A DNA stretch of 64,000 nucleotides. It comes from Endomicrobiales bacterium. Lineage in GTDB: Bacteria; Elusimicrobiota; Endomicrobiia; Endomicrobiales; CAWCFT01. The notes under the pieces are model-generated. The model ran no database searches. It saw only the letters and a list, made by a program, of their open reading frames with translations, and had not been told where the DNA came from. Below are positions 19,366-46,995 of this stretch, piece by piece (the stretch's first letter is position 1; every line of letters begins with the position of its first letter). The stretch lies in NCBI GenBank assembly GCA_963794945.1, contig CAWCFT010000001.1, positions 192,001 through 256,000 on the forward strand, written 5' to 3'. The translations under genes and the position numbers were made by a program.

Positions 19366-19478
19366 GTCATCAACAGCAATGGAAAGTATACCGGTTCTTT
19401 TTGTTATGCCGGCTTTGAACTTCTCTGCGTAGACAGTCGCGTTGACGCATGTATTGTTTACGTTAATTACTATATTGC

Positions 19479-28400: not shown

Positions 28401-31400
28401 GCCGTCAATTGAAGATTTTGAAATAGCCGCATCCGTAAACTCATACAGGAGCGCGTGGGCTGTGCCGTCCTTTTGCGAATAATCATATATTTCTATATTC
28501 GGAATTATGTTGTCATTAATGACCCTAAACAGCCTCGAACCGTTCACCGATGTAGCTATAAGTTCCAGTATTTTGCCTTCGCTGTCACGCTTAGTTTCTA
28601 CAGCGTAAACATCTTTCCCGATACTTGACCCGAATTGTTTCACAGAATTGTCGGCTAATTCGTTCTGGCGGATCTTCTCCCAGTCAATAATACCGTCTTC
28701 ACGGTATTTAATCGTAGCGGTGGTTTTCTTCATCGAATTATAATCCATGGCGGATATTTCAGTTTTATAAAGCGGCTTACTTTTGGATTCATCGGAGATC
28801 GAATACGTTACAAACACATCCGCGCCGGTAAGAACATTTGTTTCTCCGTATGTCCTGGTCCCTTCTGTAACATTTTCCCGCGTATACGCTTGTTTCATAG
28901 TCTGGCCGTTAACCGCTCCGAGTGAAGTTTTTAAAATGTTATTCTTCTTGTCGTAGGTTAACTGTTCCGATTCTATTGTACGGAGATTTATAAGCCCTGT
29001 TTCGCTGGGACGCTTATCGGCATACTCCCTGACCAACGTGCGAATATAGGTATTATCCCCGAACCCGCCTGTCTCTGTATATATCCTGTTGCCCCTGAAA
29101 TCGTACCGTTTTAAGATATCTTTTCCTGTCTCTAAATTTACGGTCTTTATATCCTTTGTCGCGGCAAGAAGGTCTTCGTTGGTATCAGTGCGCTCTTCGC
29201 TGTAACGCGCCTGGGTTGAAGTTTTTACAGCTACTGCCTTACCGTCAGCCGACGTTATCTTTCCTCTATATTTAAAGACTGACCCGTCAGGGCTAACGTC
29301 ATTCCAATCCTCATGAAGGCCGGTGGCGTTATTGTCCCTTGTTTTCAGTATACGGTTATATAACCCCGAATCGTAAGTGTAAGTGTTCACATAAACAGGA
29401 TCCTCTCCGCGCCTTCCCGCGGCTTCGTTCCAAAGATATACTTTGCTCTGCATGCCGTTTTGGCCTTCAAATATTTCCACAAGAGGAACACCGAACTCAG
29501 AATAGTGGAATATAGTGCTGAGCGGCATATCCGCTTCAAGCTGCCACAGGTATGTCTCTTCTCTATCCGCTATGCCGTCTTTTATAAAAGATTTCGTATA
29601 AGACCCGTCATTGTTCTCTTTCCTCGTGAACGTCTCTTCAAATTTTTTATCTCCCTCAGTCTGCAAATATGCGTCTCCATACCGTATCTCCCTGTGGCCT
29701 GGCAGGAACTTTGTGCCTTCAACATCTACCCACCTCATCCAGTTGCCGCGTCGTTCAATAGTGTATGTTTTATCGCCCACTATCCTTCCTATCAGGTCAG
29801 GTTTCATTGATCCTGACTTGCCAATTATCCATGACCCCAACGCCGCGTCATCGCACTTGAACTCATAAACAATGGAATGCGCCGTATTTTCTCCGCTGCC
29901 GTGCGGGAAATCAAATATTTCCAAAGTCGGCATTACGTTATCATTTGATATTTTAAATACTTTTGAGCCTTCATGCGATATGCCTGTAAGCTCCAGTATT
30001 CTGCCTTGTTTGTCTCTCAATGTTTCTACTTCATACACATCTTTGCCCAGGCTTGCACCAAACTTTTTTACCGCGCCGCAAACTTCATCGCTAACGCGGT
30101 AGGTATAATCGGATACGCATTTTCCAAGCCTCAACTCGTCCCAAGCGGACCGCATTATATTGTCCCATACAGTTTTACTGTCAGATCCGGGTGAGCGCCC
30201 CAGGGCCTCTTTGTACCGCGCCACAAGCTGCCGGGCATAATAGGTTACTTTCCAATCCGAATAATTATACTTGAACTCTTCCCTGAAATTATCCCTTAAC
30301 ACCTCGGTTGCAGCCCCGTTCTCGAACCGTTTCTGTTCCAGGAATTGTATAAACATACTTTCAAAAGCTTCCGTGCCTTCCTGCGGCGGCCTGAGCTCGG
30401 CTTGAAGCTCGGGGCTGCTTTCCAATATCCGTTTCACTTCTATTTTTGCGTCCAACAGCTGGGCTATGTCTTTATCCGTGTAACCGGCCGCAATGAGAGC
30501 CGAATAAGAATTTATTTCTTTTGTATCCATATCGCCCGTTCCTAGGAGCCGGCCCCTGTACCTTTCTATTTTTGCTTTTAGCGTTTCTGCTTCAGTTTTC
30601 GCTACTGAGAACTGGTCCAGGCTTTGATACTCCGCCAGATAGCCTGGTTTGTTCTGCAGAGACCTCTTAAGGACCGAAATTATCTCGTCTCTGCGGGTTT
30701 TATCCGATATTTCTTTTGATGCGTTTATTACATCTTTTACGTATTCCCTTTCAGTTTTGTTCACGATCTCTTTTTTTGTTTTCATTTCCGCCTGCGCTTG
30801 GACGGCATTGAAATAGCCGGAGTTATCATTTATTGTTTTCGCGAGCGTGTAGAGGTTTTTTTCTATGTTCTGCATATAAGGGCTTGCGCTGCCGAACTTG
30901 AAGTCCGGCGGTATGCAAAGTAGCTGTTGCATGAGGTTATCCTGGCTGAGCAGCTGGGCTTTGCGCGCCACGTCCGGCGTGACGTCAGCTTGCATGCTCA
31001 AGTCCATAGGATTCATCACCCTGCCCGTCTCTATTGCTGTGCCGTTTCCCGTGTTCTTTTCCTTGATGATATGGAATAATACACCAAGAGATACTCCCCA
31101 GGTATGCGAATTGCCGATACTGACGCCGTTCGGGTCAGCCTTCATCTGCAAAGAGTAATCTCCCAGATTCTTGCCGGGATGGTTATATTCAGCGCCCGAA
31201 CTCACGGTGCCCTGTTTGCCATCTTTGACCCCGCCACCTAAAGAAAGCGCGATATTCTTGCTGGGATTAACAAAAACCTCGCCATTAGCGGTATATTTGT
31301 TGGCTCCTGAAAAACTATTTATATTCTGAGTGTATTTTAGGCCTATATTATTTACCATGGCGCCTGCCCAAACTTGTCCCTGGCCGGCTGCTTTCACGCT

Positions 31401-34400
31401 CATATCAGTCCCGAAATTAACCGCTTTAAGCGCTTCTGAGGCAGCAGGCATATAAAGCGCATAATCGAGTTTGAGCCGCTGGTCCGCGTCAAAGTACGAG
31501 AATATCAGATCGCCTTTGTTCGGCCCGATACCTATAAGTTTACTGTCCTTCATATTGACATAGTATTCGCGCGCAGTGTTCAAACTAACCGTATTTAGAG
31601 TACTCGCGTTAGTCGGGTTCAAGAAATTGTAATCTGGCGGAACGTTCGCGTCACCGGGATTTAACCTGGACGCAACGAGGTTCTTAGCGCCTACGGTTAT
31701 GTCACCCCAGCCTTCCCGGAATTGCATAAAGTACTTGATATTGTCATTAGCTATCTCGGTTTTTCCTGGGGTAGTCTTCATGGCTAAACTCGTTGTAAAA
31801 TCATACAATCTTGCGACAAGCCCGTAATTGCCTGTAAATGAGTCTTTAGCCTGATTTCCAGCGGGCAGGAGCGCCCAGTCAGCCCACGGGGCCATGACCA
31901 AATTGTTGCTCATAGTGATTCTCTGGCTTGAAGAAAGAGTATATTTAGAGTTGGCATTAAACGCGTTATACGCGCCGAAGTTTATATCGGTACCTGTATT
32001 AGTGTCGCTAAACTTAAGCGTTGTTTTCGGCATGAATTTCAGCGTGGTAACATCCATTGGTGTGCCGTTCGCAGAATACTGTTCATTTTTGTATGAATAT
32101 ATGTCGGTATTATAAGTTAACCTGTCTCCTAAAAAGCTGCCCCTGGCGCTTATTTTTGACGTGGTAAATCCGCTTCCGGGCTGATTCTGCTGGTCAAAAG
32201 TAGAAGACTGAATAAAATGCCTGTTACCTAGAGCATCGGACTGCCCAGTCATATTCGTAGTTATCTGTTGCTCTAATAAATTATTATTGTTATTCCAATG
32301 AAATGTGCTGTTCTTATCCATTACATCGGAAGCCGCATAACCTGCCAGACTTGGTGTTACCTGGTTTGTTCCATTAAAACTGCCGTCTAAATTCGGCAGG
32401 GTTCCGGAATCGGAAGATAAATGATCATGCAGCGGGTTAAGCTGGAGTGCAGGGTACAAAACATTCAGCATATTTACACTTAGATTAGCGCTGCCATTGA
32501 CAACTTTAAGCATTTCTGACGCGCCGGGCATGTATAGCTTAAGGTCTGATTTGCCGGAAGGCGGGCCGGTATTCTGATATGTGAAAATAAAGTTCCCATT
32601 GGAAATTCCGGCGCTTTTCAGCTTGATATTATTTTCCGGTTCATTCTCTCCTTTCTCGCGCTTGGCCACGTTCGCCATAAGCACGTCCCTGGCATCGGTT
32701 TTTTGTTTGATCATAAGATTTATTTCTTCTATTTTTTTGTTCATCTCTTTGCGCACTTTTTCCGTACCGTGAGGATGGAGTACGTCTTTCATTTTACCGC
32801 TAAGCGACATAAAATCCATAAATCCCGCATAAAACAAGCTTGCCGGGTTTACTCCCGCAGGCACCACTATCTTTGTGCCTTCGCTTATCTTGCCGGATTT
32901 TTCCGCGGGCAAGAGTATTTGATCTCTTATCTCGGTTAAATACGTAATTTCACTTTCAAGGTTCTTAATATTTGACGATTCTTTTGAAGCGTTCGATTCC
33001 TGCGGCTGGTTGTCAACTAACTTTCCCGGCTCTTCACCCTGAAAGAAGGCCAGCTTTAGGCTTACACTGTTCGATTCAGAAGTTCCAGCATCAGTAAGCC
33101 TTTTAAGGTCATTTTTAGCAAGAGCAATATTTAGCTGATAATCCAGGCTGCTCTTATCCGCCAAGTAGGCGTTTTTCAGGTTCCGTATAGAGTGCAATAG
33201 GTCGGCCCTCAAAATATCCGCGGCAAGTTTCTGCTTCTGCTCTTCGATCTTCTGATTAAGCTCCGCGCCATACTTGGTGAGCAGTTTATCGGCATTACCC
33301 TTGATAATGAAGGTTACAGCCTGCATATTCGGCAGCGATACTTCCAACTTCACTTGAAGGCCTGATTTCGCTTTTGTTATCTGGGAAGTTATCAGCTTGT
33401 CCGCGAGTTCGTTCCTCTGGTTGTTAAGCGTATGCTTAAGGCTTTCATCAACAAAAGCAGAAATGCTCGCCTCTTCGTCTTCCGGTTTTGCCGCTGATGT
33501 AATGTTTATATCTATATTTTTGACCACATTGTCGGTTATTCCTTTTTCACGTATGTATCCCTGTATGATCTCTCTTTGCTTAAGCGCCTGCTTGTAAAGC
33601 GCCTGCATGTCCGCATTATCCTGCATGGCTTTCACGTCAAGTTTTTCTATTTCGGAGATTATCGTATTGATGTCATTAAAATGATGGATTAGGTCAAGTG
33701 AATTCTCTTTCAAGTTCAGTTCCATCAAGTCTTTGGTAAGCAGCGCGATATTCCTGTTCTCCCTTCTTTCCGGATTATACAGGTCGGCTTCAACGGCAAG
33801 CCCCAGCGAAGGTTTTAAACCCTGGTGGCTGTACAAGAAATTCGGCCCGAAGGACAATGAAGAGATTGGCAGGCGCGACACAAGCCCGCCGGATTTCTTT
33901 ATAACTGGTTCCATGTTCCCATCGTATTTGACACCGTTCTTATCGAATATTTTCTTCATCGCAAAACCGATTTCTTCGTGTTTGATTGCGTCATTTAGAG
34001 AATAAAACGCTTCTTTTAGTTCAGCCATAACTTTTTGCGAGGTTTTTTCATCAGTATTCGCCATATTCAATAACATCATGGTCCTTGAGAGCTCGTATTC
34101 CTTAAAGTTCAACATCTCCAGGCTTCCGCGAATGCCGTCCATGCGCGTTTCCAATTCATTATTGAACCATTTTCCGATGTCTTCCGGGCCTTCATATTCT
34201 TCTGCCGGAATAGAGTTTTTTGATCCGCTTCTGTATATTTTATTGTTATCTTGAACCTTCCCTGAAGGCATAAACTCCTTATGGCTGCCGTCTATCTGCC
34301 TGTTATCTTCCGGTACAAGCATCTGCTTCTGAGGCTGGTTATTGTTCTGTTCTTGAACCTGAATTTCTTTCTGTTCTTGAATTCTGGTATTTTTCTGGTT

Positions 34401-37400
34401 TTGCAATGTTAATAGCGCTGCGCTAAACCAGTGCGCGCGCTCATCGTCACTCAACAATTTATTTTTTTGCGCTTTATATTCCCTGTAAAGCATGTCGACA
34501 GTATCTTTATTGAGTGTCACAAGCGTTATCAGGCAGCTGTCAGGTAATCCCGGGAACCTTGAACGCTCTCCTTCAACCCTTTGCCTGAATTCTTCACTGT
34601 TCTTCATCTGCTGTTTGGCAATTTCTTTGGCTATCTTAATGGAATCAATTAAATTACCCGGGATAACCTTGATCTTTTGGCCGGTAACAGAATCCGTCTT
34701 GTAATACCCGTTGGAATTGACGTGAAGAACGTTCGGCACATTGGTAGCGGCAAAACAAATGTCTCCAGCGACCGGTATATTGTAAGTGGCCTGGCTAAAA
34801 TCCCTGACCATGCTGCCGAACGCGCCGAGCATGCCGCCGAACCCGCCCTGATCGGGCGAAACGGCGAACCTGCCCAGCAGGTCATTCGGCCCATAGAGGC
34901 GTATGCCGTCGCCGGCTATGGGGTGGTCGGGGTTCGCGCCTTCGATCAGTTGCCCCAGCTGCTCAAAGACATGTATATTTACCTTGTGGAACAAAGAAAC
35001 GACCCAGGAAATAGCTTTGTCAAAAAAGCCTAACTGCATCAATACTATAGATATTTCCGTGTTTACGAACCACATGCTGAACCAGCCGGAGGGAAGCCTT
35101 TTCCAGAATTGTGAATTCCCGAATACATCTTTTCGGGAGGCGAGCCTCGCATCTTTTATGGACTGGTCAATGTCTGTCGGTGTTATTATCGGAGGTGTGT
35201 TCTGGTCAATATTGCCGAGAAGGGTTCTGATCTGTTGCTTCTGCACGACACTTGCCTGTATAAACCTGTTTGACTGCCACCGTTTTTTTCCGTCGTGCTC
35301 CATTATGGCGTTAATAATGCCGATAGCCTGAGGGCTGACATTTCCCCTTGCTTTCTGCGCTTCAAGGTAAGCGATTATAGTTGCACCGTCCCACGACCAC
35401 GGCACGAAATTATCGTTGATATCGGAAAACCCATGGGCCGTCCGCAGATTTCTGCTTTCAACTTCCTGCTGCGTCACGGAAGCAGCCGGGATATAATTAA
35501 TGGCCGTTTCTTTGCCATTTTTAACAACCTCCATGTAGCGCTCTTCAAGAGGCAGGTTAAAGAATTCACTATTAAGCAGATTAGCCTTAGCGCTGCGAGT
35601 AGCCCGCGAAAAGCTTCTGACAAAAACAGTTATCAGCGGGCTTAGTATCGCTTGAACTGCAAACCCTTTATAAAGAGTTGACAAAATCGGAATCATCTGC
35701 ATTTTCGCTGCAAGGCCCGGTATAACACCAAGGATATTCATCCCCATCATGGGAACACCAAGATACATCGAAAGCAGATATAGCCCAAGAAGAACAGCCG
35801 GTATCACGGCCATCCTGAAAATATGCCATCCGCGGGCGGTTAGCAAGCCCTGTTTTTCTCCCTTATCGGGCGCCCATTTTACCGCCGCGTAGATATATAC
35901 TGCCGCAAGAATCGGTATGAAGAACAAAGGATTAGACGCAACCAGCGCCAGTATGCTACCTGTTATAAAGGTTGTCACAACAAAGAGATTCGCCCTTTCT
36001 TTAAAGAACCTGAAATGCGCTGCGATAAGCGTTATTTCAAGCACGGGCCTGAGCGTTTCAGCTATCTGCCGCGCGAACATTTTAATTCTGCCTGAAAATG
36101 TTGTTCTTAACTGCTCCTGCTCGCGAAGCTGGTCTACGATAGTCCTGGATATCTCCTGCTGGGAAAGGTAAACTTCCTTGTTCCTGCCCAGCCAGTGGTA
36201 CCTCAAAGCGCTGTCGAGATGTCTTAGGTAAAAACCTCTGAAAAGATGTAAAGCGAACCTTCCTGATACCATGTAAAGCACAGCCGCGCCTGATGATTTT
36301 ATATTAAGCCTGCCCTTATGTATCAAGTCATTCTTTATATTTCTCCACATATCCCCAAAATTCATTTTTTCAATTTCTTCACCGTAATTTTTTTTGGTGT
36401 AGTATGCCTGGTTAAGCTGTTCCAGCCTCTGGTAAACAAGCCACCAGTTTGTTCCGTTTTTACCTCCGGCAAGAAGTTTATCTGCATCGCCGCCCTGAGT
36501 TTGAATAGATTGTCTTACATATTCCTCTCCGCCATATTTCCTGAAAACACGTTCTTTTATTGTTTCGTTTAAAGCTGTTTTCCCGGATATTATTTCATCG
36601 GCCTGGCTTTCCTGCTTGGGTGAGTTAACAGCGCCCCCTCCGGCCGAAGCAGGGGGATTCAAGGCCGAAGTGTTAAACCATGATCCTATCTTTTCAATTA
36701 GTTTTCCTGCCTTATAATCTATCCTGCCGGAATGCCGCAGTTCGGGCATTGCTGACAATGCCGTATTGTAGCCCTTGTTAAATTGTAAAAGCGCGGCGAC
36801 GGAATCCTTTGCGGAACCTGGGTCCACAACGAAAGATTCCGCATAATCGAGGCCATTATCAGGATAGATCCTTTTCAATATTTCCTGAAGTTGAACACGT
36901 TCACGCACTTCAGATTTTAAATAGCAATCTACCGCGGTGCCTGGAAATCCAAGAAATATGCCTAGAATGGAATCACTGATATTTTCGTATTTGTCTGTTC
37001 TTGCTTTACCTGTTGCGAATAGATTGTTAAGCTCGTCAATCTCAAACCCGATTATGTACTGAGAAATAAGCCCGTCTATCTGCTGTTTGTTCATAAAACC
37101 GGACCCCAAACCAAATGGCGCAGTCATTCCCGCTTGCCTGAATTGATCAGCTAGAAAATCTCTATTTTCAGTGAAAACCTTGTTTATTGATTCGATATTG
37201 TAAATATACAGCTCATATTTCCCGGAATAATTGCCGCTCTTTCTTTCCGAAATACATACACCTACCCCAAGTTTTTCAAAAAGTATTTTTGCGTCTTCAC
37301 TTTCATATAGTTTTTTAACGGCCTTCGTTATGATGCCGTAATATCCGGGCTTACCTCCGCCAAATACTGATGCACGAGCCGCACGGCCTTTTACATAATT

Positions 37401-39674
37401 CAGTCCTGAAACATTTAACGTTTTTGCGGTGATCAATTCTTCAAGAAGGGATAAAGATCTAGTATCGAGGCTCCTCAATCTTGCGGCCCTTTCCGCGTCT
37501 TCCGTGTTTTTTCCCCTACCTATCATGGACTTTAATTCCTGTATGCCACGTTCGCCGAGAGCGGCAAGAACTTTGTTTACATTTCCTTCTACGGCCACCC
37601 TTTTTGTCTTACCACTGCTCCAGTTTTCCCTAGCCTTTTTACGCAGCCACCTTACAAACCCGTACGCAACAGCCGCCGCTCCTGCCGTGATCAATACTAT
37701 AACTCCGGCGCTCATCATGCCGTAAGATTGTTGCTGCATAATTGCCGCTGTGCCGGCGTGGGCAAGCATAGGCGAAAGGAATATCAGCCCTAAAGACATG
37801 AATAATCTTAATATGCCGGGCATTTTACTATTCCGTGTAAAATCGTAAGAAATACTAGTTTTATTTATATCTATCGTGTAAATATTTTTACCCGTAGACA
37901 CATTGTAAATACCAGGCTCTTTTGTGGTCACTATCTCCACGCGGCCCGAAATGTTATTCGCCTTCATCCAGGCATTGATCTCTTCCTCGATATCTCGTAT
38001 TGAAAGCTTTTGAGCAGCAGCCCGCCTGGCCCACGCGCCTATCATAATATCTACTGCATCCCGCGGCATCCCGACGTCCAGAAGCACTGGAGCGAAGAAT
38101 GAGTTAACGAACCTGTTCACATTAAGCGTTCCGCTGAAAGTCTCACGGTAAATGCTGTTATCGTATGCAGTGGTTATCGCGGGCATCAAAGTGATGTTAG
38201 AAATAGCTTCTCTATCGAAATACTGAGTAACATCCGAATGGAAACCTCCAGTTACCATGATAATGATATTCTTGTATTGCGCGAGCTTGTCAGCGCTGCA
38301 AAGCTGGTCGGGAGGCTGCTGGGGTAAAGGCCCGGTGTAAGTTTTACCGATATATTCTCTTGCAGCGTTATAAAATATTGAGTTTCTTTCCTTATTTGCA
38401 TCATAAAAACCAAATAATTCATTTTCATGTTCTGTGAGGTAAGATAAAACATCGTTTAATTCGGTGTCATCAATATATTTCTTTAATGTCGCCTTGAATT
38501 TAGAATTATTGCATTTTAAGTACTCGTAATCCTGTGACCCAAGTTTGAGCTGACAGAAATCACCCAGATATTCGTCCATTTCCGACAAAAATAGCATTTC
38601 TTTGTCCAGCAAAGTATCTGCGTGCTTTTCAAGCGCCCTCCGCAGGAAAGCCTTTTCTTCATACAGAAAAGATACTGGATTGATAGAATTTGTTAAACGG
38701 ATATAATCGAGAAATTTGTCAAGGTTCGGGTACGCACGCATGTATGGAGTGTACAACCTGGAAAGTTCTGAAAGTGCCAGATAGTATTCATTTTTGTGCT
38801 CTTTATTTCCTGACAGGGCCACGAGCTTTTCATATGCCCCGAAAGGAGCCTGAGTCTTCAATTCCTCCACATATGCCCTGTGTTCCATGTCAAGCTTGTA
38901 ATAGTTGATAGTTTCATTTACCTGCCTCAGCCTTAGGTACCTTTCGAGGTGCGGGTAACTATGCAGTGAAATGCCGCTTTCGTAGCTCAGCCGTTCAATT
39001 TCCCTATAGTAGGACTGAGGAGCGCCTTCTCTGCTGTTATCAATATATCTTTCATATTTTTTGATCTTCCCGGAAAGATAGTTCTCTTTGAGCTCCCCAA
39101 CCCATTTATGGATCTTCCCGACTTGCCTGCCGTATTCATCCTGAGATGAAAGTATTGAGTTGATCCTCTTTAGATTCTCGTTATATATGTCCCATTTTTC
39201 AAGCCCGAAAAGAATATTATTATTTCGCGTAACGGCGTAGTATTCGGCCCCGGAGATCAGCCCGTTATGGAGCAATCCGTCAAGCAGATATTTCTTCGTG
39301 CCGTTTCCGGGCAATGAGGAAAGAAAGCTTGTATCAACATGGCCCTGCGGTGCTCCTTCTGTAAGTATCGCGGAGACTTTATAGTGGTTGTCTAAATACT
39401 CAATAATGCCGAAGATGTTTTTCTGTACTTCGGGATCGCAGTGCAGGTCTTGAACACAAACTACCAGCGTGTCAGTGTGATACAGCTGTGAATCGATGAC
39501 TTTACCTAATTCATTAGGCACAGGAGATCGGTCTATCACACGTGAAAGCCGGGACGCTGCGGTGTTGTTATCAAGCAGTATCTCCACGCCTTTTAGCGGC
39601 TCGCAAAGCACAAATGAAAAAGCAAACGCGCTAAGTGTTATAAGTGTGACATAGTATTGAATTTTTTTGATCAT
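19479..39674 (-). CDS. Giant multi-domain envelope protein (about 6730 aa as sequenced; about 7970 aa if joined with 15769-19365)
   Basis: 20-kb uninterrupted ORF; N-terminal signal/TM segment, QDLHC..EG..SGAEY..GGFHS domain, TM clusters, beta-rich region, YD-like repeats, internal duplications. Confidence 0.9.
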   Translation of the reverse strand: MIKKIQYYVTLITLSAFAFSFVLCEPLKGVEILLDNNTAASRLSRVIDRSPVPNELGKVIDSQLYHTDTLVVCVQDLHCDPEVQKNIFGIIEYLDNHYKVSAILTEGAPQGHVDTSFLSSLPGNGTKKYLLDGLLHNGLISGAEYYAVTRNNNILFGLEKWDIYNENLKRINSILSSQDEYGRQVGKIHKWVGELKENYLSGKIKKYERYIDNSREGAPQSYYREIERLSYESGISLHSYPHLERYLRLRQVNETINYYKLDMEHRAYVEELKTQAPFGAYEKLVALSGNKEHKNEYYLALSELSRLYTPYMRAYPNLDKFLDYIRLTNSINPVSFLYEEKAFLRRALEKHADTLLDKEMLFLSEMDEYLGDFCQLKLGSQDYEYLKCNNSKFKATLKKYIDDTELNDVLSYLTEHENELFGFYDANKERNSIFYNAAREYIGKTYTGPLPQQPPDQLCSADKLAQYKNIIIMVTGGFHSDVTQYFDREAISNITLMPAITTAYDNSIYRETFSGTLNVNRFVNSFFAPVLLDVGMPRDAVDIMIGAWARRAAAQKLSIRDIEEEINAWMKANNISGRVEIVTTKEPGIYNVSTGKNIYTIDINKTSISYDFTRNSKMPGILRLFMSLGLIFLSPMLAHAGTAAIMQQQSYGMMSAGVIVLITAGAAAVAYGFVRWLRKKARENWSSGKTKRVAVEGNVNKVLAALGERGIQELKSMIGRGKNTEDAERAARLRSLDTRSLSLLEELITAKTLNVSGLNYVKGRAARASVFGGGKPGYYGIITKAVKKLYESEDAKILFEKLGVGVCISERKSGNYSGKYELYIYNIESINKVFTENRDFLADQFRQAGMTAPFGLGSGFMNKQQIDGLISQYIIGFEIDELNNLFATGKARTDKYENISDSILGIFLGFPGTAVDCYLKSEVRERVQLQEILKRIYPDNGLDYAESFVVDPGSAKDSVAALLQFNKGYNTALSAMPELRHSGRIDYKAGKLIEKIGSWFNTSALNPPASAGGGAVNSPKQESQADEIISGKTALNETIKERVFRKYGGEEYVRQSIQTQGGDADKLLAGGKNGTNWWLVYQRLEQLNQAYYTKKNYGEEIEKMNFGDMWRNIKNDLIHKGRLNIKSSGAAVLYMVSGRFALHLFRGFYLRHLDSALRYHWLGRNKEVYLSQQEISRTIVDQLREQEQLRTTFSGRIKMFARQIAETLRPVLEITLIAAHFRFFKERANLFVVTTFITGSILALVASNPLFFIPILAAVYIYAAVKWAPDKGEKQGLLTARGWHIFRMAVIPAVLLGLYLLSMYLGVPMMGMNILGVIPGLAAKMQMIPILSTLYKGFAVQAILSPLITVFVRSFSRATRSAKANLLNSEFFNLPLEERYMEVVKNGKETAINYIPAASVTQQEVESRNLRTAHGFSDINDNFVPWSWDGATIIAYLEAQKARGNVSPQAIGIINAIMEHDGKKRWQSNRFIQASVVQKQQIRTLLGNIDQNTPPIITPTDIDQSIKDARLASRKDVFGNSQFWKRLPSGWFSMWFVNTEISIVLMQLGFFDKAISWVVSLFHKVNIHVFEQLGQLIEGANPDHPIAGDGIRLYGPNDLLGRFAVSPDQGGFGGMLGAFGSMVRDFSQATYNIPVAGDICFAATNVPNVLHVNSNGYYKTDSVTGQKIKVIPGNLIDSIKIAKEIAKQQMKNSEEFRQRVEGERSRFPGLPDSCLITLVTLNKDTVDMLYREYKAQKNKLLSDDERAHWFSAALLTLQNQKNTRIQEQKEIQVQEQNNNQPQKQMLVPEDNRQIDGSHKEFMPSGKVQDNNKIYRSGSKNSIPAEEYEGPEDIGKWFNNELETRMDGIRGSLEMLNFKEYELSRTMMLLNMANTDEKTSQKVMAELKEAFYSLNDAIKHEEIGFAMKKIFDKNGVKYDGNMEPVIKKSGGLVSRLPISSLSFGPNFLYSHQGLKPSLGLAVEADLYNPERRENRNIALLTKDLMELNLKENSLDLIHHFNDINTIISEIEKLDVKAMQDNADMQALYKQALKQREIIQGYIREKGITDNVVKNIDINITSAAKPEDEEASISAFVDESLKHTLNNQRNELADKLITSQITKAKSGLQVKLEVSLPNMQAVTFIIKGNADKLLTKYGAELNQKIEEQKQKLAADILRADLLHSIRNLKNAYLADKSSLDYQLNIALAKNDLKRLTDAGTSESNSVSLKLAFFQGEEPGKLVDNQPQESNASKESSNIKNLESEITYLTEIRDQILLPAEKSGKISEGTKIVVPAGVNPASLFYAGFMDFMSLSGKMKDVLHPHGTEKVRKEMNKKIEEINLMIKQKTDARDVLMANVAKREKGENEPENNIKLKSAGISNGNFIFTYQNTGPPSGKSDLKLYMPGASEMLKVVNGSANLSVNMLNVLYPALQLNPLHDHLSSDSGTLPNLDGSFNGTNQVTPSLAGYAASDVMDKNSTFHWNNNNNLLEQQITTNMTGQSDALGNRHFIQSSTFDQQNQPGSGFTTSKISARGSFLGDRLTYNTDIYSYKNEQYSANGTPMDVTTLKFMPKTTLKFSDTNTGTDINFGAYNAFNANSKYTLSSSQRITMSNNLVMAPWADWALLPAGNQAKDSFTGNYGLVARLYDFTTSLAMKTTPGKTEIANDNIKYFMQFREGWGDITVGAKNLVASRLNPGDANVPPDYNFLNPTNASTLNTVSLNTAREYYVNMKDSKLIGIGPNKGDLIFSYFDADQRLKLDYALYMPAASEALKAVNFGTDMSVKAAGQGQVWAGAMVNNIGLKYTQNINSFSGANKYTANGEVFVNPSKNIALSLGGGVKDGKQGTVSSGAEYNHPGKNLGDYSLQMKADPNGVSIGNSHTWGVSLGVLFHIIKEKNTGNGTAIETGRVMNPMDLSMQADVTPDVARKAQLLSQDNLMQQLLCIPPDFKFGSASPYMQNIEKNLYTLAKTINDNSGYFNAVQAQAEMKTKKEIVNKTEREYVKDVINASKEISDKTRRDEIISVLKRSLQNKPGYLAEYQSLDQFSVAKTEAETLKAKIERYRGRLLGTGDMDTKEINSYSALIAAGYTDKDIAQLLDAKIEVKRILESSPELQAELRPPQEGTEAFESMFIQFLEQKRFENGAATEVLRDNFREEFKYNYSDWKVTYYARQLVARYKEALGRSPGSDSKTVWDNIMRSAWDELRLGKCVSDYTYRVSDEVCGAVKKFGASLGKDVYEVETLRDKQGRILELTGISHEGSKVFKISNDNVMPTLEIFDFPHGSGENTAHSIVYEFKCDDAALGSWIIGKSGSMKPDLIGRIVGDKTYTIERRGNWMRWVDVEGTKFLPGHREIRYGDAYLQTEGDKKFEETFTRKENNDGSYTKSFIKDGIADREETYLWQLEADMPLSTIFHYSEFGVPLVEIFEGQNGMQSKVYLWNEAAGRRGEDPVYVNTYTYDSGLYNRILKTRDNNATGLHEDWNDVSPDGSVFKYRGKITSADGKAVAVKTSTQARYSEERTDTNEDLLAATKDIKTVNLETGKDILKRYDFRGNRIYTETGGFGDNTYIRTLVREYADKRPSETGLINLRTIESEQLTYDKKNNILKTSLGAVNGQTMKQAYTRENVTEGTRTYGETNVLTGADVFVTYSISDESKSKPLYKTEISAMDYNSMKKTTATIKYREDGIIDWEKIRQNELADNSVKQFGSSIGKDVYAVETKRDSEGKILELIATSVNGSRLFRVINDNIIPNIEIYDYSQKDGTAHALLYEFTDAAISKSSIDGLKPGSIGRIVGEKTYRIERPGDSMRWIDVKGTKFLPGHREIRYGEVYQHTDKDKNFEETFVKRENEDDTYTKYYYKAGLIDRTETYLWRLEDEMPVSKIFYSTDYGAPLIEVFEGRDNMESKMYLWDEKTGNRGQNPVFENTYIYDSRYYDRIISTKDNKVTGLHEEWNDVSPNPDNIKFEGKITGPAGALIATIITEQARYSNTRTETKDNMNGNKDIKTMNIITGNEQANKYDFKSNRIYSETYAPGDNTYLRSFVREYDDKRPNEGGWINQRTKENELTIYDQKNRPIIVTSYGAVEGLSLKQSYLRRDITEQINTRGERDIVTGADLSRAYSAYDKAYKYPLYMTEISDIDYTSMRNTVSTVKYREDAEGRENRFVEWIENGFINPLFNAGNFTKTLADGRTLSVTTGLAENNKPLINSAGDYYKTVEYKLLGQKENITLNTDMTPHESVTTSNNGTFVEKKALNARSADGTICNRVEEADGETAVEYLNGFCGSVVSKEKYFNDKRTSRTDYGFKNNKSGEVYFSVLTVNDKLGTETEESRGAHRDGYTQWIETRNKTTKEPVTVLNSNDGITFNGFNYDTKELMDQHALYIGGPINEKTTFTPSANDLNSTRDIKCKEHLYINDDGTAIMVSEYPKTKNNRAEQYEFYGGVLNESRETGPDDFVIVNKTRLNASGTEYKLDYYNGVSEIHTMAYPGDIPAEIKASDISGVNIYSMQNNGNKNTYTYANGDVSEQALKYRGGPVETMTTWSSPSRNTVKTTGTVRFDEKNRSWGLELIYPNSNSKHFENKDFLWRDGPIVKDEVFSAGDLSKGNFSGNKSKVRVSLTESGFNSSDNKLHQVSHYYGEHDLTAEIRAEDYTLLFMNGPPAEGANTATIREYRYKYDGTRVPSNKETVTYKVDIDYPQPNYVYRTETVYRTDNGIRMPYFDSKQQLKNILGAWKPVSQELRYQKWMQPAYGLLKTSFAYDEKKTGLPLENTADYINPTGAPVTLRTKTERMFNYNELKNSKHISQGEQGIIKEVERVRDEIARLVKTNSKDNAVPDIVIPAENLFVGMVYETSSDRSGNIIPEKYLGMSLYLNDIAGLRLVASEDINAVTTERKINIKYELNNGQTVEHGYTRGTTGKLGAVNHGVDYPVYFKLTGPWKNDLVDINRAPIFQGQNELKRDEVQEYYPLPHKDRIFLRAYDAILAMIYHAKDIIIDKNTGSFTYKKGPPELMMIYRSLREGKDVLPKYYTTPALSWALILSVLSAAFVLPSVFIKLYRKKKNDALYKSNATTQQQASGTIDYQGSEKANDDKAQVTNESGNGASNGNGNSLVNEGLNGDILTPIEKSEKLLDEWEAMLNIRRTTGFSGQDIDDLLNKAMKIINLTPFEVKKANKNLLGLHKNYGNMYKLSLETMRILKLTESKIPDNDEEKKEELNLVLSEFGDIAQYASNYADIASSQDNLNLMSNYVMNKDNIFEKRLPLLKISVMTVVRIVYGFWLGIRVSSGRMKSSVRKLVKLGNAIDPELYDDQENTIRDTDNYADSIVQQEKVPSFGIKQYWKFRRAVPRIIGVLTLLFSVFSFAFISSEITLDLVRGLICGIGISAGASLFLVWRGLVDEYSEHQKINIDKNLKRYMTDNHEDKFRDMEYKTAIRTWKKEMDSEKPNADIVLVMAEQSMVGKYEELFKEKSHKFVRKDTKFKVVPYNGNDGAAYCEAFSYLSDAYPGSNEFGRSIILITGKDDWDSVTNTVSLPGIDDLTLPDKEDINNIEFQLMNGYRAAKALADEGRGGKIFVDAALHYVGPIRRRDEITMVGSWADYKQVEDQNLKLVLGMNDGHVRKLYQDFKLEDINDKLERHMLTGVYDKSNIKKRQMPVLSGITLFSFDTHKKEQEFIELLRYEPKDFSLTNDIVNPLILLKREGSKEMYKSLISRNIFANKEQRDPMLKLLDTYDNLYAKDNSVPFEFWLYMPHLHETYITNGRALHNTPVDNVDKANPKRPENVDGGSPSHDELMTPYENAEKYLDELDCLTQAKKDNFTEDDAVMARNKVKLIMNLTPFKMEKAKSNLANLYWIYDKLEKRSMETIDSLKKTYKIIPENDVKKKEKIGLIIAEFNSISKYAVNYMGAVSSLDNIGVMSGYFMPHGKFLETSGLMSFMRFWFGFSFGLASSSFGAKDRVRKIVGIGNAIDPGLYDIPEQTIQEADKYADSIEHADKSNAIGIGKRWPLRRALPRILGLLVFLYSILDIALLHTGIPTSFIISLIVFGFMSLGISWYCILKGLDTHYELKLKGIDNATEGFVTGDYTQRFRRIEYEDTIKSWEQEMASEKPSADIVLIMAVSENVNKYEQLFSAGSDRFIRNDVPFKVIPYEGNDGAAYAEAYRYLAENYPAVKKNGRAIILVTGANEWHSITSAVSIPGTKKIKLPSGNDIKNIEYQLMNGYKASRMLAEEKRGGKIFIDVELQYTGPVKRSGEITLVGSWANFNQVEDQKLKLVLESFDGRIKKLYHDFKLEEINDKLERHMLTGVYDRTNSKKRQMPVLSGITLFSFDKEENEDEFTDLLSEEPRGFSMTKDVFNPLILLKHEGFNKMYKSLISRNVFPNKLNRDPMLKLFDNYNKRYDNGNSMPFDFWVYMAHPQETYITRGSVHETPAKDADDIHTASFYGFFDWTPWIMALGLESKIKAKISSVPEAVEGDKEVVKRAEDVPAKGFTMAHETALEIFNGAGMSVQNDESLKKYITGQKWLNGYLDKVQIDIVRGLPQNKIFNGSGKAGEFYDLGRLVTYNRDQAGVLHVLIHEKFFGAYPGIERETLALVVALHEFLEEYFVSQKNMSLQQAHELVDRSGFGENIVGQITSLADINMIDRIKKNWEVVKPQVQIVAARAPLSRVAPVKDRYDIVKNEIRALRSVTSPFAAVKEIGRIVTPLTRQEIQNRMYYKGVMPVSYEVTGTFKKQIMELAALNKGGLGITLLKEAANTSAKAFSV
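20505..24410 (-). repeat. Tandem intragenic duplication B (2 x about 660 aa)
   Basis: NLTPF, GNAIDP.LYD, GNDGAAY, INDKLERHMLTGVYD, KRQMPVLSGITLFSFD and ETYIT each present twice. Confidence 0.92.
27285..30075 (-). repeat. Tandem intragenic duplication A (2 x about 470 aa)
   Basis: VKKFGASLGKDVYEVET / VKQFGSSIGKDVYAVET; GTKFLPGHREIRYG and TGLHE.WNDVSP in both copies; each ends KYRED. Confidence 0.92.
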
Positions 39675-39907
39675 AAATTGCCGTCTTTGGATACTATATG
39701 CCTTGATTTTCACGGGGTGGCTGCGGTCTCTATTATTGCCGTTTCTTACCTGTACTGACCGATCTTATAACGGCAAACACTTCTGGTATGCGTTTCCTGC
39801 GGCGTCTTGAGAAAATGCCGGTTCTCTTTAGATAGTTGCCAATAATCGTCAGCATCTGGCAATACATAATATTTTTAATCATTAATACACCTCTCATGCT
39901 CAATAAG

Positions 39908-39961
39908 AATATACCCAAAATCGATTAAGCGTATATAAAGATAATGTTAATATTCCGTTAA
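39908..39961 (-). promoter_or_regulatory. Pho-box-like array and -10 element facing the giant gene
   Basis: TTAACG, TTAACA, TTTATA, TTAATC starting at 39961, 39950, 39939, 39928 (11-bp period); TATATT at 39913. Confidence 0.7.
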
Positions 39962-39979
39962 TTCAGCCGACGGAATAAC

Positions 39980-40033
39980 TTTACCAAGATTTAACAAAAC
40001 ATTAATACCATATTAATTAAAAAACTATACTAT
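39980..40033 (+). promoter_or_regulatory. Pho-box-like array and -10 element facing olsB
   Basis: TTTACC, TTAACA, TTAATA, TTAATT at 39980, 39991, 40002, 40013; TACTAT at 40028. Confidence 0.7.
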
Positions 40034-40076
40034 GTACCCAAGAACATGCGGAGTATCTATAAGGAGAAGAACAAAC

Positions 40077-41060
40077 ATGACAAATTCAGTGCTCATCAAA
40101 CAGCAGCCTTTCCCAAAGTTTCCCGATGCTTTCAACACCGGCCCAGTTCTTACAAAACCATATAGGCTGGCGTTCAATGTTTTTCATCCCAAGATCCGGC
40201 TCTGCCTCCACAAAGGTAGATATACAGTCAAGACGGTTTCTGAGCCCGCTGAACTGGAAAAAGTCCTTCAACTCCGCCACGAAGTATTTTGCATAGAAAA
40301 GGCTGGAAGAACACCCTACATAGGCATCGATTGGGACCGGTTTGATCTTATCTGCGACCATCTTATGGTGATCGACAGGCTTTCATCTAAAATAGTGGGG
40401 ACCTATCGTCTAAACTCATCTCTATTTACAAAAAACTTTTACTCCGCTAAGGAATTTAATATCGATAACATAATCAAACTGCCAGGCACAAAACTCGAAC
40501 TCGGGAGAGCGTGCATTCACAAGGAATTCAGGAATGGCATTATGATCGCTCTGTTGTGGCGAGGTATCTGCGAATACATGAAAATGACCGGCACAAAATA
40601 CCTTTTTGGTTGTTCCAGTGTTGACACAACTGACCATGAAGAGATCAACAATATCTATAACTATTTCCTTGTAAATCACTATAGCCAGGACAACCTGAGA
40701 GTATTTCCTAAAATTAAATATACGGCTATAAACCGGAACCTTATGCGTGGTCACATTCTTTCAAATGACGGGACTATCAACCGGGTGCATCAATATTCCA
40801 CAGATATACACAATAGCCTTGAACACCTGAAAAACAATGCCGGTAAAGGATGTTCAACAAAAGACCGTGAACAAAGTAATTCGGCTTCATCTTCTTCCAA
40901 TAACGACATAGCTATCCCGCCTCTTATAAAGGCGTATTTAAGGGCTGGAGCCGTTATTTGCGGCGAACCGGCGCTCGACAGTTATTTCCGCTGCACTGAT
41001 TTCTTTACGTTTCTGGATGTTGAACTCATGAATAAATCGATTGAGAGGAGGTTCTCATGA
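40077..41060 (+). CDS. olsB: GNAT-family amino-lipid N-acyltransferase (OlsB-like)
   Basis: LRHEVF, DRFD..CDHL, IVGTYRL, FYSAKEF, LELGRACIH..FR, YLFGCSS, IPPLIKAYLRAGA, DFF. Confidence 0.82.
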   Translation: MTNSVLIKQQPFPKFPDAFNTGPVLTKPYRLAFNVFHPKIRLCLHKGRYTVKTVSEPAELEKVLQLRHEVFCIEKAGRTPYIGIDWDRFDLICDHLMVIDRLSSKIVGTYRLNSSLFTKNFYSAKEFNIDNIIKLPGTKLELGRACIHKEFRNGIMIALLWRGICEYMKMTGTKYLFGCSSVDTTDHEEINNIYNYFLVNHYSQDNLRVFPKIKYTAINRNLMRGHILSNDGTINRVHQYSTDIHNSLEHLKNNAGKGCSTKDREQSNSASSSSNNDIAIPPLIKAYLRAGAVICGEPALDSYFRCTDFFTFLDVELMNKSIERRFS

Positions 41061-41881
41061 TGCGTATTGCGAAGATGCTTTTTGCGGGCTTGCTAATTGT
41101 TACCTACAGCCTTATTTCACTTATAGGGTCCGCGTTTCTGTTCAACAACCGCGCCCGCACGGTATTTTTAACAAAAACAACTTCATTTTTCTGCAATACG
41201 CTTTTAGCAGTGCTTGACATCACCGCTGTAGCATTGCACTCGCCTTTATGGCGGCAGGACAAGCCGTATCTGGTAGTGTCCAATCACTTATCTTATCTTG
41301 ATATTATTGCCATAGCGTCCACAATGCCGGCCGTTTTTGTGTCCAGCATGGAAATACGCGCGGCGGCCTTCCTGGGTTTCATCGCACGCTGCGGCGGAAC
41401 GATATTCATTGAGAGAAGAAAGAAAATGAAGAATTTGAAACGGGAGATCAGAACAATAACTGAAACACTGAAGCAAGGGCTTAATGTCGTGATATTTCCC
41501 GAAGGGACTTCTTCTAACGGTACAGGAGTTCTTCCTTTTAAGAGATCTCTAATGGAAACTGCGTTTCAATCCAACAGCGACGTTCTGCCTGTCTGCCTTA
41601 TGTATTCCCATGATAGCGAGAAGTTGTCCGGCCCGAGCAAAGAGTCCGTGTTCTGGTACGGAGATATGAAATTTTTTTCTCATTTTTTCAATCTTTTTAA
41701 ACAATCAAAGCTGGTAATAACACTGCAGATCATGGAACCGCTCAGGATTGACGCTTACGCTGACAGGAATTCTCTCACGGAAGACGCCTATCTTTCAATA
41801 GCGGCCGCTTACAACTGGCAGAAACCTTATGCTTACGAAAATGACCTGATAAACCCTATGGACCTGTCATTCGAAAGATAG
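41057..41881 (+). CDS. Lysolipid O-acyltransferase (PlsC/OlsA family)
   Basis: NHLSYLD, FIER, FPEGT motifs; overlaps the olsB stop codon. Confidence 0.88.
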   Translation: MMRIAKMLFAGLLIVTYSLISLIGSAFLFNNRARTVFLTKTTSFFCNTLLAVLDITAVALHSPLWRQDKPYLVVSNHLSYLDIIAIASTMPAVFVSSMEIRAAAFLGFIARCGGTIFIERRKKMKNLKREIRTITETLKQGLNVVIFPEGTSSNGTGVLPFKRSLMETAFQSNSDVLPVCLMYSHDSEKLSGPSKESVFWYGDMKFFSHFFNLFKQSKLVITLQIMEPLRIDAYADRNSLTEDAYLSIAAAYNWQKPYAYENDLINPMDLSFER

Positions 41882-41900
41882 ATCTATATCCGGCAAATAC

Positions 41901-41954
41901 TTAACAGATAATTAACATAATATTTATCCAGCCTTAATCTGGAATATGTATTAT
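41901..41954 (+). promoter_or_regulatory. Pho-box-like array and -10 element facing the GT21 gene
   Basis: TTAACA, TTAACA, TTTATC, TTAATC at 41901, 41912, 41923, 41934; TATTAT at 41949. Confidence 0.72.
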
Positions 41955-41955
41955 T

Positions 41956-43140
41956 TTGTTCAAATCTGCCTTAAGGAGCAGCGCATTGTTATATGTTTGC
42001 GAAACAGCAATGGGGTTCTCACTATTTGTCTACCTGGTCTATTTGTTTTTTACCACATATTTTAAAAACCCCGTAAAACACGTTGTGTATACTGACAAGA
42101 GTTACCCCAAAGTCAGCATTCTGAAACCATTGAAATATATCGACAATGATTTTGAAGATAATCTCCTGAGTTTCATCACACTTGATTATCCGGACTACGA
42201 GATACTACTTGGAATGGACAATTGCAGTATTGAAACAATAGATAAACTAAAACTTATATGTTCTAAATATCCAAACAATATTGTTAAGCTCATCGCAAAG
42301 AAGGGCTTCTCAAGAAGTAATCCAAAAATAGAAACTCTATCCGTCCTCGAAAGTTATGCCTCCGGAAGCCTTTACTGGGTGTCCGATTCCAACACAAGGG
42401 TCGGCAAAGATACACTCAAAATGCTGGTAAACGAATACCTTACAAATAAGTCAAAACTCATTTACTCCCCCATCTTCGGCACGGGCAGCAAAACCGCTGC
42501 CAGCGTCATGGAAAACTCTTACCTGAACCTTTTTGTTTCGGGAAGCATATTAACCGGCAATATTACAGCTAAACAGCATATAATAGTCGGCAAGTCCATG
42601 CTTATTGAAAGGAATGCTCTTGAAAAATTCGGCGGGTTCTCTTATTTTGGAAAGTATTTGGCTGAGGACTTCATGATAGGCAAGGAATTTTTGGAGAGAG
42701 GCATGTCAGTGTCAAGTAATTTTACTTGGATCACGAACTATGTTTCAAACTCTTCAATACCGAGTTTTGCGGCAAGGATGGCAAGATGGGCCAAGTTGCG
42801 GTTCCATCTCAACCCGCTAATTTACTGTTTAGAAATACTTACCAACCCCATAGGGCTGGGACTGATCTCTATTATGATGCTTGGCAAGGAAGCTCTACCA
42901 GCTGCATTATGCACAGCGTGCGCAAAAATTTTGATCGAGTACGCCAGCATGCTGATAATGAATCCGGCTGACGCCAGGAAACTCTGGATACTCTTATCTT
43001 TTCCTTTCGTTATATTGTTTAGAGATGCTATCTTGTTCTTCTATGTATACTTTATTCCCTTCATTTCGTATACAGTGTCCTGGGGAAACAGAACTATGAC
43101 CATTGGAAAGTACAGCATAATTAACGAAGCACGAGCTTAA
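41956..43140 (+). CDS. Ceramide glucosyltransferase-like GT21/HpnI family glycosyltransferase (start may be ATG 42010)
   Basis: PKVSILKPL, NPK, SDSN, LAEDF, RMARWAKLR motifs; N- and C-terminal TM helices. Confidence 0.82.
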   Translation: MFKSALRSSALLYVCETAMGFSLFVYLVYLFFTTYFKNPVKHVVYTDKSYPKVSILKPLKYIDNDFEDNLLSFITLDYPDYEILLGMDNCSIETIDKLKLICSKYPNNIVKLIAKKGFSRSNPKIETLSVLESYASGSLYWVSDSNTRVGKDTLKMLVNEYLTNKSKLIYSPIFGTGSKTAASVMENSYLNLFVSGSILTGNITAKQHIIVGKSMLIERNALEKFGGFSYFGKYLAEDFMIGKEFLERGMSVSSNFTWITNYVSNSSIPSFAARMARWAKLRFHLNPLIYCLEILTNPIGLGLISIMMLGKEALPAALCTACAKILIEYASMLIMNPADARKLWILLSFPFVILFRDAILFFYVYFIPFISYTVSWGNRTMTIGKYSIINEARA

Positions 43141-46700: not shown

Positions 46701-46995
46701 CGTCCTCAAAAATAACGTAGACGTATGAGAAACCATAATCCGAAAAGGCTCGTATGTCTTTTACTTTCGGAGCGCCAAGGAGCGCGGAAACGATAGGATA
46801 TGTTACCTGATCCTCGATAACCCGCGGAGGCCGGTCCCACTTGGTATAGATGATAACCTGAGTGTCGGTAAGGTCGGGTATAGCATCAAGCGGTATATTC
46901 TTTATAGCCCAGACCAACCAGGCGATCATAGCCGCGACGCCCAGGAACACGAACGCCTTATTCTTAGCCGACCATTCAATGATTTTTTCGATCAT
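43737..46995 (-). CDS. cusA: CusA/CzcA heavy-metal RND permease (frameshift near 44992)
   Basis: LDAIPDLTDTQV, GPDATGVGW, AIGAMVDAAIVVVEN, EFMPPLNEG; second part WTMPIKGRIDMLSTG, RIRPKLMT. Confidence 0.93.

Follow-up and report, generated by a model that had tools for sequence, protein, structure and literature searches.

The DNA considered here is a stretch of 64,000 nucleotides (nt), called the window below, from the genome of an uncultured Endomicrobiales bacterium; it corresponds to C1:192001-256000 of the 2.9-Mb assembly (G000). Proteins encoded by genomes of the same order are labelled Elusimicrobia, Endomicrobium and Endomicrobiaceae, in line with this placement. Our subject is a promoter array that occurs three times in the window, ahead of a giant gene on the minus strand and, on the plus strand, ahead of an olsB-olsA-like gene pair and of a gene for a membrane glycosyltransferase of family GT21. 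The region spans positions 39908 to 41954, from the −10 hexamer of the giant gene through that of the GT21 gene.

Three promoter arrays and the genes behind them

As listed in Table 1, each array consists of four hexamers of the form TT(A/T)A(C/T)N (TTWAY) with a period of 11 bp, and the −10 hexamer (TAnnnT) starts exactly 15 nt past the start of the fourth repeat in all three promoters, just as a preliminary description of this DNA had claimed. The architecture had also been called identical, which holds for the geometry (period and −10 spacing) and fails for the sequence, the three arrays agreeing pairwise at 18-22 of 24 hexamer positions and at 3-13 of 24 spacer positions. Since the hexamers agree while the spacers are unrelated, the arrays were taken to be sites under selection, not duplicates of one another. 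Four TTWAY hexamers in a row at period 11 were found seven times in G000, including the three cases in the window; among nine other periods used as controls (7 to 16), eight gave no run and one gave a single run. A TTGACA-like −35 element at 16-18 nt was seen in none of the five promoters checked, and the repeats stand in for it at a fixed distance from the −10, which is the arrangement of a Pho box. Rfam gave no match in 39600-42100.

The two genes behind the olsB array encode adjacent PF13444 and PF01553 proteins, as in the OlsBA pathway. Their best matches were still OlsB and OlsA, at 114.8 bits against equivalog cut-offs of 350 and 320 and at 112.8 bits against 300, respectively, while the GT21 protein scored 106.2 bits on PF13506 (gathering threshold 21.7) and 145.8 bits on the HpnI equivalog, missing its cut-off of 310. 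Judged by these family assignments, the products of both the olsB/olsA-like and the GT21 genes would be phosphorus-free lipids. PhoB control of ornithine-lipid synthesis is known (PMC12971839), and an olsB-olsA-like pair under a Pho box resembles S. meliloti OlsBA and S. proteamaculans olsF described there, although, unlike known OlsBA, the proteins of the window lie well below the curated cut-offs. Elusimicrobia are not mentioned in that review.

The preliminary description had spoken of a 24-kb giant gene. This length is reached if the gene is read across one indel (an insertion or deletion), giving ~23.9 kb and ~7,970 codons, whereas the open reading frame (ORF) as assembled is 20.2 kb (19479-39713). 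The two ORFs were regarded as one gene because the alignment with a homolog in genome G011 runs in one frame as far as 19482 and resumes in a different frame at 19572, because 19710 is where the downstream frame opens, and because the two parts are fused in genomes G003 and G007. Many indel breaks of this kind occur in the G000 assembly; a CusA/AcrB-type transporter in two ORFs on the minus strand (43737-46995) probably represents another. A leader ORF lies between the promoter and the giant gene. In genome G013, a basic ORF of 55 codons occupies the equivalent position (L066, about 18600-18770), and other giant genes of G000 have ORFs of ~165 amino acids (aa) ahead of them.

Pfam and NCBIfam gave no match on the first ORF (6,744 aa), and a search of this ORF in four pieces gave no match to HEAT, C39 or S8 peptidase or wall-degrading domains in these databases, which divergent copies could escape. 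The topology predicted by hydropathy and the positive-inside rule alternates consistently from residue 633, placing residues 1325-5018 outside and the Y, X and glucan-acting domains inside. The outer segment of ~3,700 residues is present in G000 and G011 and missing from most orthologs. A beta-barrel reading of residues 2361-2910 was set aside, the atlas score being below 0.9 with low recognition and the strand-alternation score not picking out the region.

Table 1. Features of the window and related sites (positions in the window unless a genome, contig or locus handle is given).
Feature	Position	Strand	Remarks
−10 hexamer TATATT, giant-gene promoter	39908..39913	-	
Four-repeat Pho-box array, giant gene	39923..39961	-	TTAACG-TTAACA-TTTATA-TTAATC (39961..39923)
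Four-repeat Pho-box array, olsB-olsA	39980..40018	+	TTTACC-TTAACA-TTAATA-TTAATT
−10 hexamer TACTAT, olsB-olsA promoter	40028..40033	+	
Four-repeat Pho-box array, GT21	41901..41939	+	TTAACA-TTAACA-TTTATC-TTAATC
−10 hexamer TATTAT, GT21 promoter	41949..41954	+	
OlsB-like N-acyltransferase (PF13444)	40077..41060	+	
OlsA-like O-acyltransferase (PF01553)	41057..41881	+	
GT21 membrane glycosyltransferase	41986..43140	+	ceramide glucosyltransferase/HpnI-like
Leader ORF, 49 codons	39733..39882	-	between promoter and giant gene; ribosome-binding site and basic RRRR cluster, read from the sequence
Giant gene, first ORF	19479..39674	-	likely ATG 39674; 6744 aa counted from GTG 39713
Giant gene, frame-shifted continuation	15769..19710	-	past one indel near 19570-19600; fused in G003 and G007
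N-terminal QDLH domain	38124..39533	-	common to the giant-protein family, 7 copies in G000
Predicted extracytoplasmic segment, residues 1325-5018	24660..35741	-	internal repeats; largely shared with G011 only
Possibly beta-barrel-like part, residues 2361-2910	30984-32633	-	weak atlas lead, 0.87
Y module copy 1	23544..24410	-	helical bundle and membrane hairpin
X module copy 1	22464..23516	-	
Y module copy 2	21552..22397	-	modelled (predicted local distance difference test, pLDDT, 88.5); no clear fold match
X module copy 2	20454..21536	-	modelled (pLDDT 78.9); sugar-1-phosphate nucleotidyltransferase fold
GH77-like domain	~17878-18684	-	in continuation ORF
GDE_C domain	~15922-16911	-	in continuation ORF
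TTCACA sites, G000	C18:23656	+	
TTCACA sites, G000	C18:16044, C4:363719	-	
TTCACA sites, G000	C8:22089-23780		
TTCACA sites, other loci	L042, L091, L142, L144, L209, L358, L364, L387-L393		
AAAGCGCTTTC-like element	L439, L444, L454, L462, L463, L469, L510		metagenome contigs

The array at the pst genes and its candidate regulators

Another of the seven runs heads the porin-pstS-pstC-pstA-pstB-phoU operon of G000, with TATCAT at +15; a phoB-phoR-like pair lies directly ahead of this unit, and pstC, pstB and phoU exceed their curated cut-offs. Searching for the four-repeat TTWAY pattern gave 37 occurrences in 19 of 31 genomes, and 5 for a reversed control. Thirty array loci were inspected. Among the 27 from other genomes, 20, some of them overlapping matches of one promoter, precede a porin gene, pstS or pstC and one precedes a gene of a phoB operon; one more lies before a PHP-glycosyltransferase-olsB-olsA operon, two before giant genes and three before nothing relevant.

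A Pho model comprising the four hexamers and the −10 was trained on 17 pst-type promoters chosen by hand (that of the G000 pst operon and 16 of other genomes, duplicates excluded). At positions outside the search pattern, the training promoters have TA at +15 (17/17) and a hexamer-final T (16/17), and the consensus is TTAACA-TTAACA-TTTATW-TTAAY. This pst-only model ranked the GT21 promoter first in G000 (43.3 bits), followed by the pst promoter (42.4, in training), an array at C17:110524 (39.6), the giant gene (38.5) and olsB (31.3), the three held-out window promoters thus all falling within the top five. Lower scores were obtained for a second giant gene (26.0) and an array on the nrdR side (25.3), and weaker sites lie before a PHP-glycosyltransferase gene (19.4) and before ppx-ppk (14.2). 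Five local shuffles gave maxima of 14.8-26.3, with a single site above 25 in total. A position weight matrix scan had been expected in the preliminary description to find pst and pho genes, and the same array does stand at the pst operon of G000 and of its relatives. On this comparative evidence, the TTWAY arrays are Pho boxes.

The PhoP-activated promoters of Bacillus subtilis, such as those of tuaA and pstS, carry four TT(A/T/C)ACA repeats at 11 bp over the −35 region. The arrays described here resemble these sites in hexamer type, number of repeats, period and −35 position, and differ from them in belonging to a different phylum, in the −10 fixed at +15, and in a regulon with phoU, an outer-membrane porin and a giant membrane protein. 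PHO boxes have been described as 11-nt repeat units arranged head to tail that control pstSCAB-phoU, with a species-dependent consensus (PMC4415409); the PhoB box of E. coli shares the 11-nt direct-repeat units and this target with our arrays, whereas its CTGTCAT differs from the consensus given above (PMC4415409).

Additional arrays were noted. The one at C17:107820-110524 (L222; 39.6 bits) lies ahead of two secreted proteins of 337 aa and 505 aa (M23-like part), the homologs of which are encoded just upstream of phoB-phoR in G012. A four-repeat array readable on both strands (C6:61560-61607) lies between uvrA and an nrdR-led gene run, the last genes of which are DUF47- and Pit-like (named by eye); on the minus strand it lacks a −10 at +15. 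Another array readable both ways (C8:53815-53873) is located between phoB and dnaE, 460 nt from the former and 280 nt from the latter. In G003, G013 and G012 (L063:14932-15476, L068:12709-13227, L071:7185-7709), the pst island also encodes a small sigma-70 region 2/4 protein, preceded by its own array in G003 and G012.

Three OmpR-type DNA-binding domains were found in G000, those of PhoB (C8:52721-53401), a KdpE-like protein and a PhoB-like paralog (C8:29951-30646). The phoB gene adjoins the pst operon, as in the relatives, forming a PhoB/PhoR pair linked to pst, and the paralog gene adjoins a sigma factor gene and a 5,091-aa gene. In the upstream regions of 150 giant genes, hexamers of TTCACA type show maxima at 48 and 37 nt ahead of a −10 (31 and 21 counts; 0-13 elsewhere). 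This second motif, TTCACA-N5-TTYWCA, has the geometry of the Pho array with a different sequence, and precedes about a fifth of giant-family genes. A model seeded with TTCACA matched 30 of the 139 training promoters, a circular count. Applied to G000, which was held out, it placed three giant-gene promoters and three sites from the island of the paralog among its nine best; of 55 held-out promoters from four phoB-less genomes, 7 exceeded 15 bits, versus 0-1 in 20 shuffles. Since TTCACA sites persist in phoB-less genomes, the motif is independent of PhoB, and it is probably read by the paralog. The giant-gene promoter of the window reached at best 6.1 bits with the TTCACA model versus 38.5 with the pst model, indicating that it is not of the TTCACA type. 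A different OmpR-family regulator had been named beforehand as an outcome that would speak against Pho control; a rival regulator does exist, yet the motif linked to it is the distinguishable TTCACA and not the window type.

Six genomes with PhoB and without the paralog (G002, G008, G023, G031, G080 and G083) had no giant-family match either, and G086, G087, G032 and G065 are exceptions to this co-absence.

The giant-gene family and its Y-X module

Of 104 genomes of the order, 64 encode the N-terminal QDLH domain (N domain), often with 10-15 or more copies each. We examined 162 N-domain loci and scored the 150 with at least 300 nt upstream; 6 promoters reached at least 25 bits and 11 at least 20, indicating that the Pho array is absent from most giant genes. 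A sequence search of solved structures with the N domain gave no match, 27 members had no common Pfam family, and the nearest atlas clusters are from Omnitrophota and Elusimicrobiota. A weak match to ChaN/Tiki in one distant protein (E 0.005) was not confirmed on follow-up and counts as a lead. The N-domain tree united six array-linked genes at weak support (0.44) and placed the others elsewhere, and the Y-X module was therefore taken as the family marker instead. Array-led giant genes mostly have two copies each of Y and X, which occur in no other protein of G000; the Y-X core is about 620 residues. A giant gene of G016 (C162, L204) has two Y copies, no X match and a TTCACA-type site ahead.

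The X model was nearest to the GDP-fucose pyrophosphorylase part of FKP (9iis, Z 15.9, root-mean-square deviation 3.5, 248 aligned residues), with the next unrelated entry at Z 10.9 and a Foldseek E of 4.8e-7, and a distant X relative (P0083) matched PF07959 (E 1.3e-14). X thus resembles this Bacteroides domain (PDB 9iis, 9iit) in fold, and differs in being 11% identical, in an unrecognised catalytic motif, in the membrane-hairpin module that is always ahead and in having no kinase domain. The fold matches also include eIF2B subunits. A sequence search of X against solved structures gave no match, nor did a scan of a genome collection with a single X domain. For Y, the model of which is helical and confident, the best fold match had Z 11.4, to designed helical proteins, and Foldseek gave no E below 0.001.

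The X module was found in 29 of 122 genomes of the class, all within this order. Arrays of at least 27 bits precede X-module giant genes in 10 genomes from six families, with 38.5 bits in G000, 31.3 in G003, 33.4 in G013, 41.6 in G024, 34.4 in G072, 34.7 in G073, 34.4 in G075 and 33.6 in G085, as well as 27.3 in G011, where the array is the operon promoter before olsB-olsA, and 31.3 in G016, where X is on another contig and its link to the array is inferred. This scoring leaves out G004, G088, G089, G097 and G098 (start outside the fetched DNA), G076, G103 and a weak match in G029. Weak calls at L103 (G003), in AT-rich DNA a long way upstream, and in G028 and G030 were treated as chance. Five genomes of one genus (G018, G019, G021, G094 and G095; 97-100% complete) have the paralog only, the query used finding no PhoB ortholog; their X-giant promoters score −5.4 to 9.0 bits, and the array is missing in 5/5. 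PhoB was not found in G092 (74% complete) either, where an intermediate site is kept. A survey of pstC, matched in 96 of 104 genomes, gave no separation of genomes.

Orthologs lie among phosphate genes in several genomes. The closest, in G011, belongs to an array-olsB-olsA-giant operon directly past phoU, in an island reading phoB-phoR-porin-pst-phoU-olsB-olsA-giant-ppk. Those of G003 and G024 stand among ppk, ppx, pst and phoBR with their own array, and that of G007 faces glgC, GT21 and metallophosphoesterase genes under a 34.7-bit array. GH77/GDE domains are fused to the giant protein in G000, G003 and G007. The second array-led giant gene of G000 (C6:147270-151613; L219, L220; 26.0 bits) is broken by indels; its pieces match HAD-like, PLD and metallophosphoesterase domains and, in two places, PHP, both times with scores close to or under the cut-off. 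It is divergent from a gene for a giant protein with a metallo-beta-lactamase fold, the G004 ortholog of which has a 22.8-bit array-like site.

A profile of X matched 128 representatives, almost all of them large and with Y immediately ahead of X. Nine of these were aligned, and the alignment was used to fetch 80 loci, most of which are labelled Omnitrophota; 16 contain X. Genes of pst/pho type were present in 11 of the 16 X-bearing loci versus 0 of the 64 others, and the median promoter score was 10.7 (n=16) versus −4.6 (n=59, five being dropped for short upstream DNA). Several high-scoring loci among the others are contig-cut close relatives, and since the Omnitrophota kin are not independent, we claim no P value. 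Their boxes mix TTAACA and TTCACA, and their Y-X proteins include parts resembling HlyD and OEP, most of which score close to or under the Pfam cut-offs. A metagenome scan yielded Y-X in 2 of 80 loci, with identical promoters of 20.7 bits, and 76 of the 78 others scored below 8, numbers too few for much weight. On metagenome contigs, a recurring upstream element resembling AAAGCGCTTTC, followed by CTTACCTATA, was seen before a different large-protein family.

Interpretation of the arrays and of the giant protein

It is very probable that the three window arrays are Pho boxes of the pst-linked PhoB-type regulator, and that they activate the giant gene, olsBA and GT21 under phosphate shortage. 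This reading is argued from the motif, its geometry, its sharing with pst, its conservation and its co-loss with phoB; PhoB binding and induction at low phosphate would follow from it. The regulator encoded beside pst would own the arrays, and its phosphorylated form would, by the example of known PhoB/PhoP promoters, bind the four repeats as two tandem dimers, cover the place of the −35 and activate a sigma-70 promoter with its −10 15 nt past the fourth repeat. Phosphate uptake (porin-pstSCAB-phoU), the synthesis of phosphorus-free lipids (olsBA-like, GT21) and the giant gene would thereby be switched on. In the likeliest, though less certain, reading of the giant protein, its cytoplasm-facing Y-X units and glucan-acting domains would take part in making or handling a glycan or glycolipid without phosphorus, which outer parts specific to the lineage would carry or display.

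Several observations weigh against this picture. PhoB of G000 has PhoB as its best family and scores 237.8 bits on TIGR02154 (cut-off 296.2), with the paralog close behind (218.8), so that it is called PhoB by synteny. Some X-giant promoters are intermediate (21.4 bits in G007, 20.7 in G025, 20.2 in G027, 20.2 in G092, 17.1 in G091 and 15.6 in G022), and in G022, G025, G027, G091 and G092 the TTCACA model scores about equally, as it does for non-Pho sites in phoB-less genomes. No array precedes the other X-bearing giant gene of G003 (11,894 aa; −1.2 bits). The five phoB-less genomes, being of one genus, amount to a single loss event, and the persistence of Y-X giants in them suggests that their function is not strictly tied to phosphate starvation. 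In the Omnitrophota set, 2 of 16 X-bearing promoters score no higher than about 0, a score of 8 bits is reached by 8 of 59 others, and pst/pho neighbours are missing from 5 of 16 X-bearing loci. No glycosyltransferase family matched the giant protein of the window. The residues named catalytic in FKP are Arg80, Lys89, Asp136, His168, Lys187 and His272 (PMC11982464). Mapped by eye on the X alignment A1, by motif order only, the Asp136 equivalent was common and Arg79/Arg80, Lys89 and His168 were not seen; since these residues are mostly unrecognisable by eye, X may be inactive.

The window arrays might instead be read by the PhoB-like paralog in response to another signal. It is almost as PhoB-like as PhoB itself, giant genes do carry a related motif of the same geometry, and the Omnitrophota boxes are mixed; however, the giant-gene array of the window fits the pst model far better than the TTCACA model, and phoB-less genomes that keep the paralog lack TTAACA arrays at their X-giant promoters but retain TTCACA sites. 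We regard this alternative as improbable. Hardly credible is an incidental array, arising from AT-rich, partly palindromic DNA beside the olsB promoter. The two arrays are indeed separated by an AT-rich gap of 18 bp, with TTAA cores readable on either strand, but the giant gene has a separate array and its own −10, and the array is kept in orthologs far from olsB (G013, G003, G024, G072, G073, G075 and G085).

If Pho control is granted, the likeliest role of the giant protein is envelope remodelling, to which we would give slightly less than an even chance. It was taken as the first reading because of the co-regulated neighbours (olsBA, GT21, a PHP-GT4 enzyme and glgC) and the analogy with the Bacillus PhoP regulon, in which teichuronic acid replaces teichoic acid, a swap of a phosphorus-rich envelope polymer (PMC6232261), and the anatomy of the protein favours it over phosphorus scavenging. 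Scavenging from polymers, particles or prey, which we consider unlikely, would fit the phosphoesterase domains of the second array-led giant of G000 better than the window protein; the array-like site before the G004 metallo-beta-lactamase-fold giant, the large predicted outer segment and the view in the literature that giant proteins in related phyla serve predation or degradation also point that way, whereas the window protein matched no phosphatase or nuclease family, its conserved core is predicted to be cytoplasmic and the outer segment is missing in most orthologs. Carrying a similarly low likelihood is a catalytically dead Y-X sensor or scaffold that would bind nucleotide-sugars or pyrophosphate and couple phosphate status to glycogen turnover through the fused GH77/GDE domains. 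The subunits of eIF2B use the nucleotidyltransferase fold non-catalytically, and their presence among the X fold matches, the unrecognised FKP residues, the GH77/GDE fusions and glgC in the G007 island are in keeping with such a role; many Y-X proteins have no GH77/GDE, however, and the Omnitrophota members have export-like parts instead. Envelope remodelling can be extended to a broader proposal, which we regard as doubtful: Y-X would be an undescribed, membrane-bound enzyme that synthesises an envelope glycan or glycolipid free of phosphorus, fused per lineage to export or display parts in one trans-envelope polypeptide and forming a conserved part of the Pho regulon in Elusimicrobiota and Omnitrophota, with giant genes as a class wired to two PhoB-like paralogs that read TTAACA and TTCACA arrays.

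The window protein resembles the archaeovorin-type giants of Omnitrophota and Elusimicrobiota (bioRxiv 10.1101/2023.11.21.568195 and 10.64898/2026.06.07.730766) in its size above 5,000 residues, several membrane helices, sugar-metabolism domains and an N domain shared with Omnitrophota clusters; unlike these, it gave no HEAT or C39 match in the Pfam and NCBIfam searches described above, and it has a defined regulator and a Y-X core. The word promoter has 0 occurrences in the available text of the two preprints, and we found no report of Pho control of giant genes of Elusimicrobia, Endomicrobia or Omnitrophota in the literature available in part, on which supplements could bear.

The regulation is well supported by the comparative evidence, and a familiar switch would here act on a new, conserved and unusual target. 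The promoter type is familiar; what is new is Y-X as a family marker, the co-loss of the array with phoB, and the second (TTCACA) motif. With the Pho box of Endomicrobiales defined, the regulon becomes predictable, and the TTCACA motif predicts switching of other giant genes. The Y-X core is small enough for expression and assay. Giant proteins of Elusimicrobiota and Omnitrophota are usually interpreted as tools of predation or adhesion, and for one defined family of them there would now be a regulator and an inducing condition, phosphate starvation, which offers an initial indication of when these proteins are produced.

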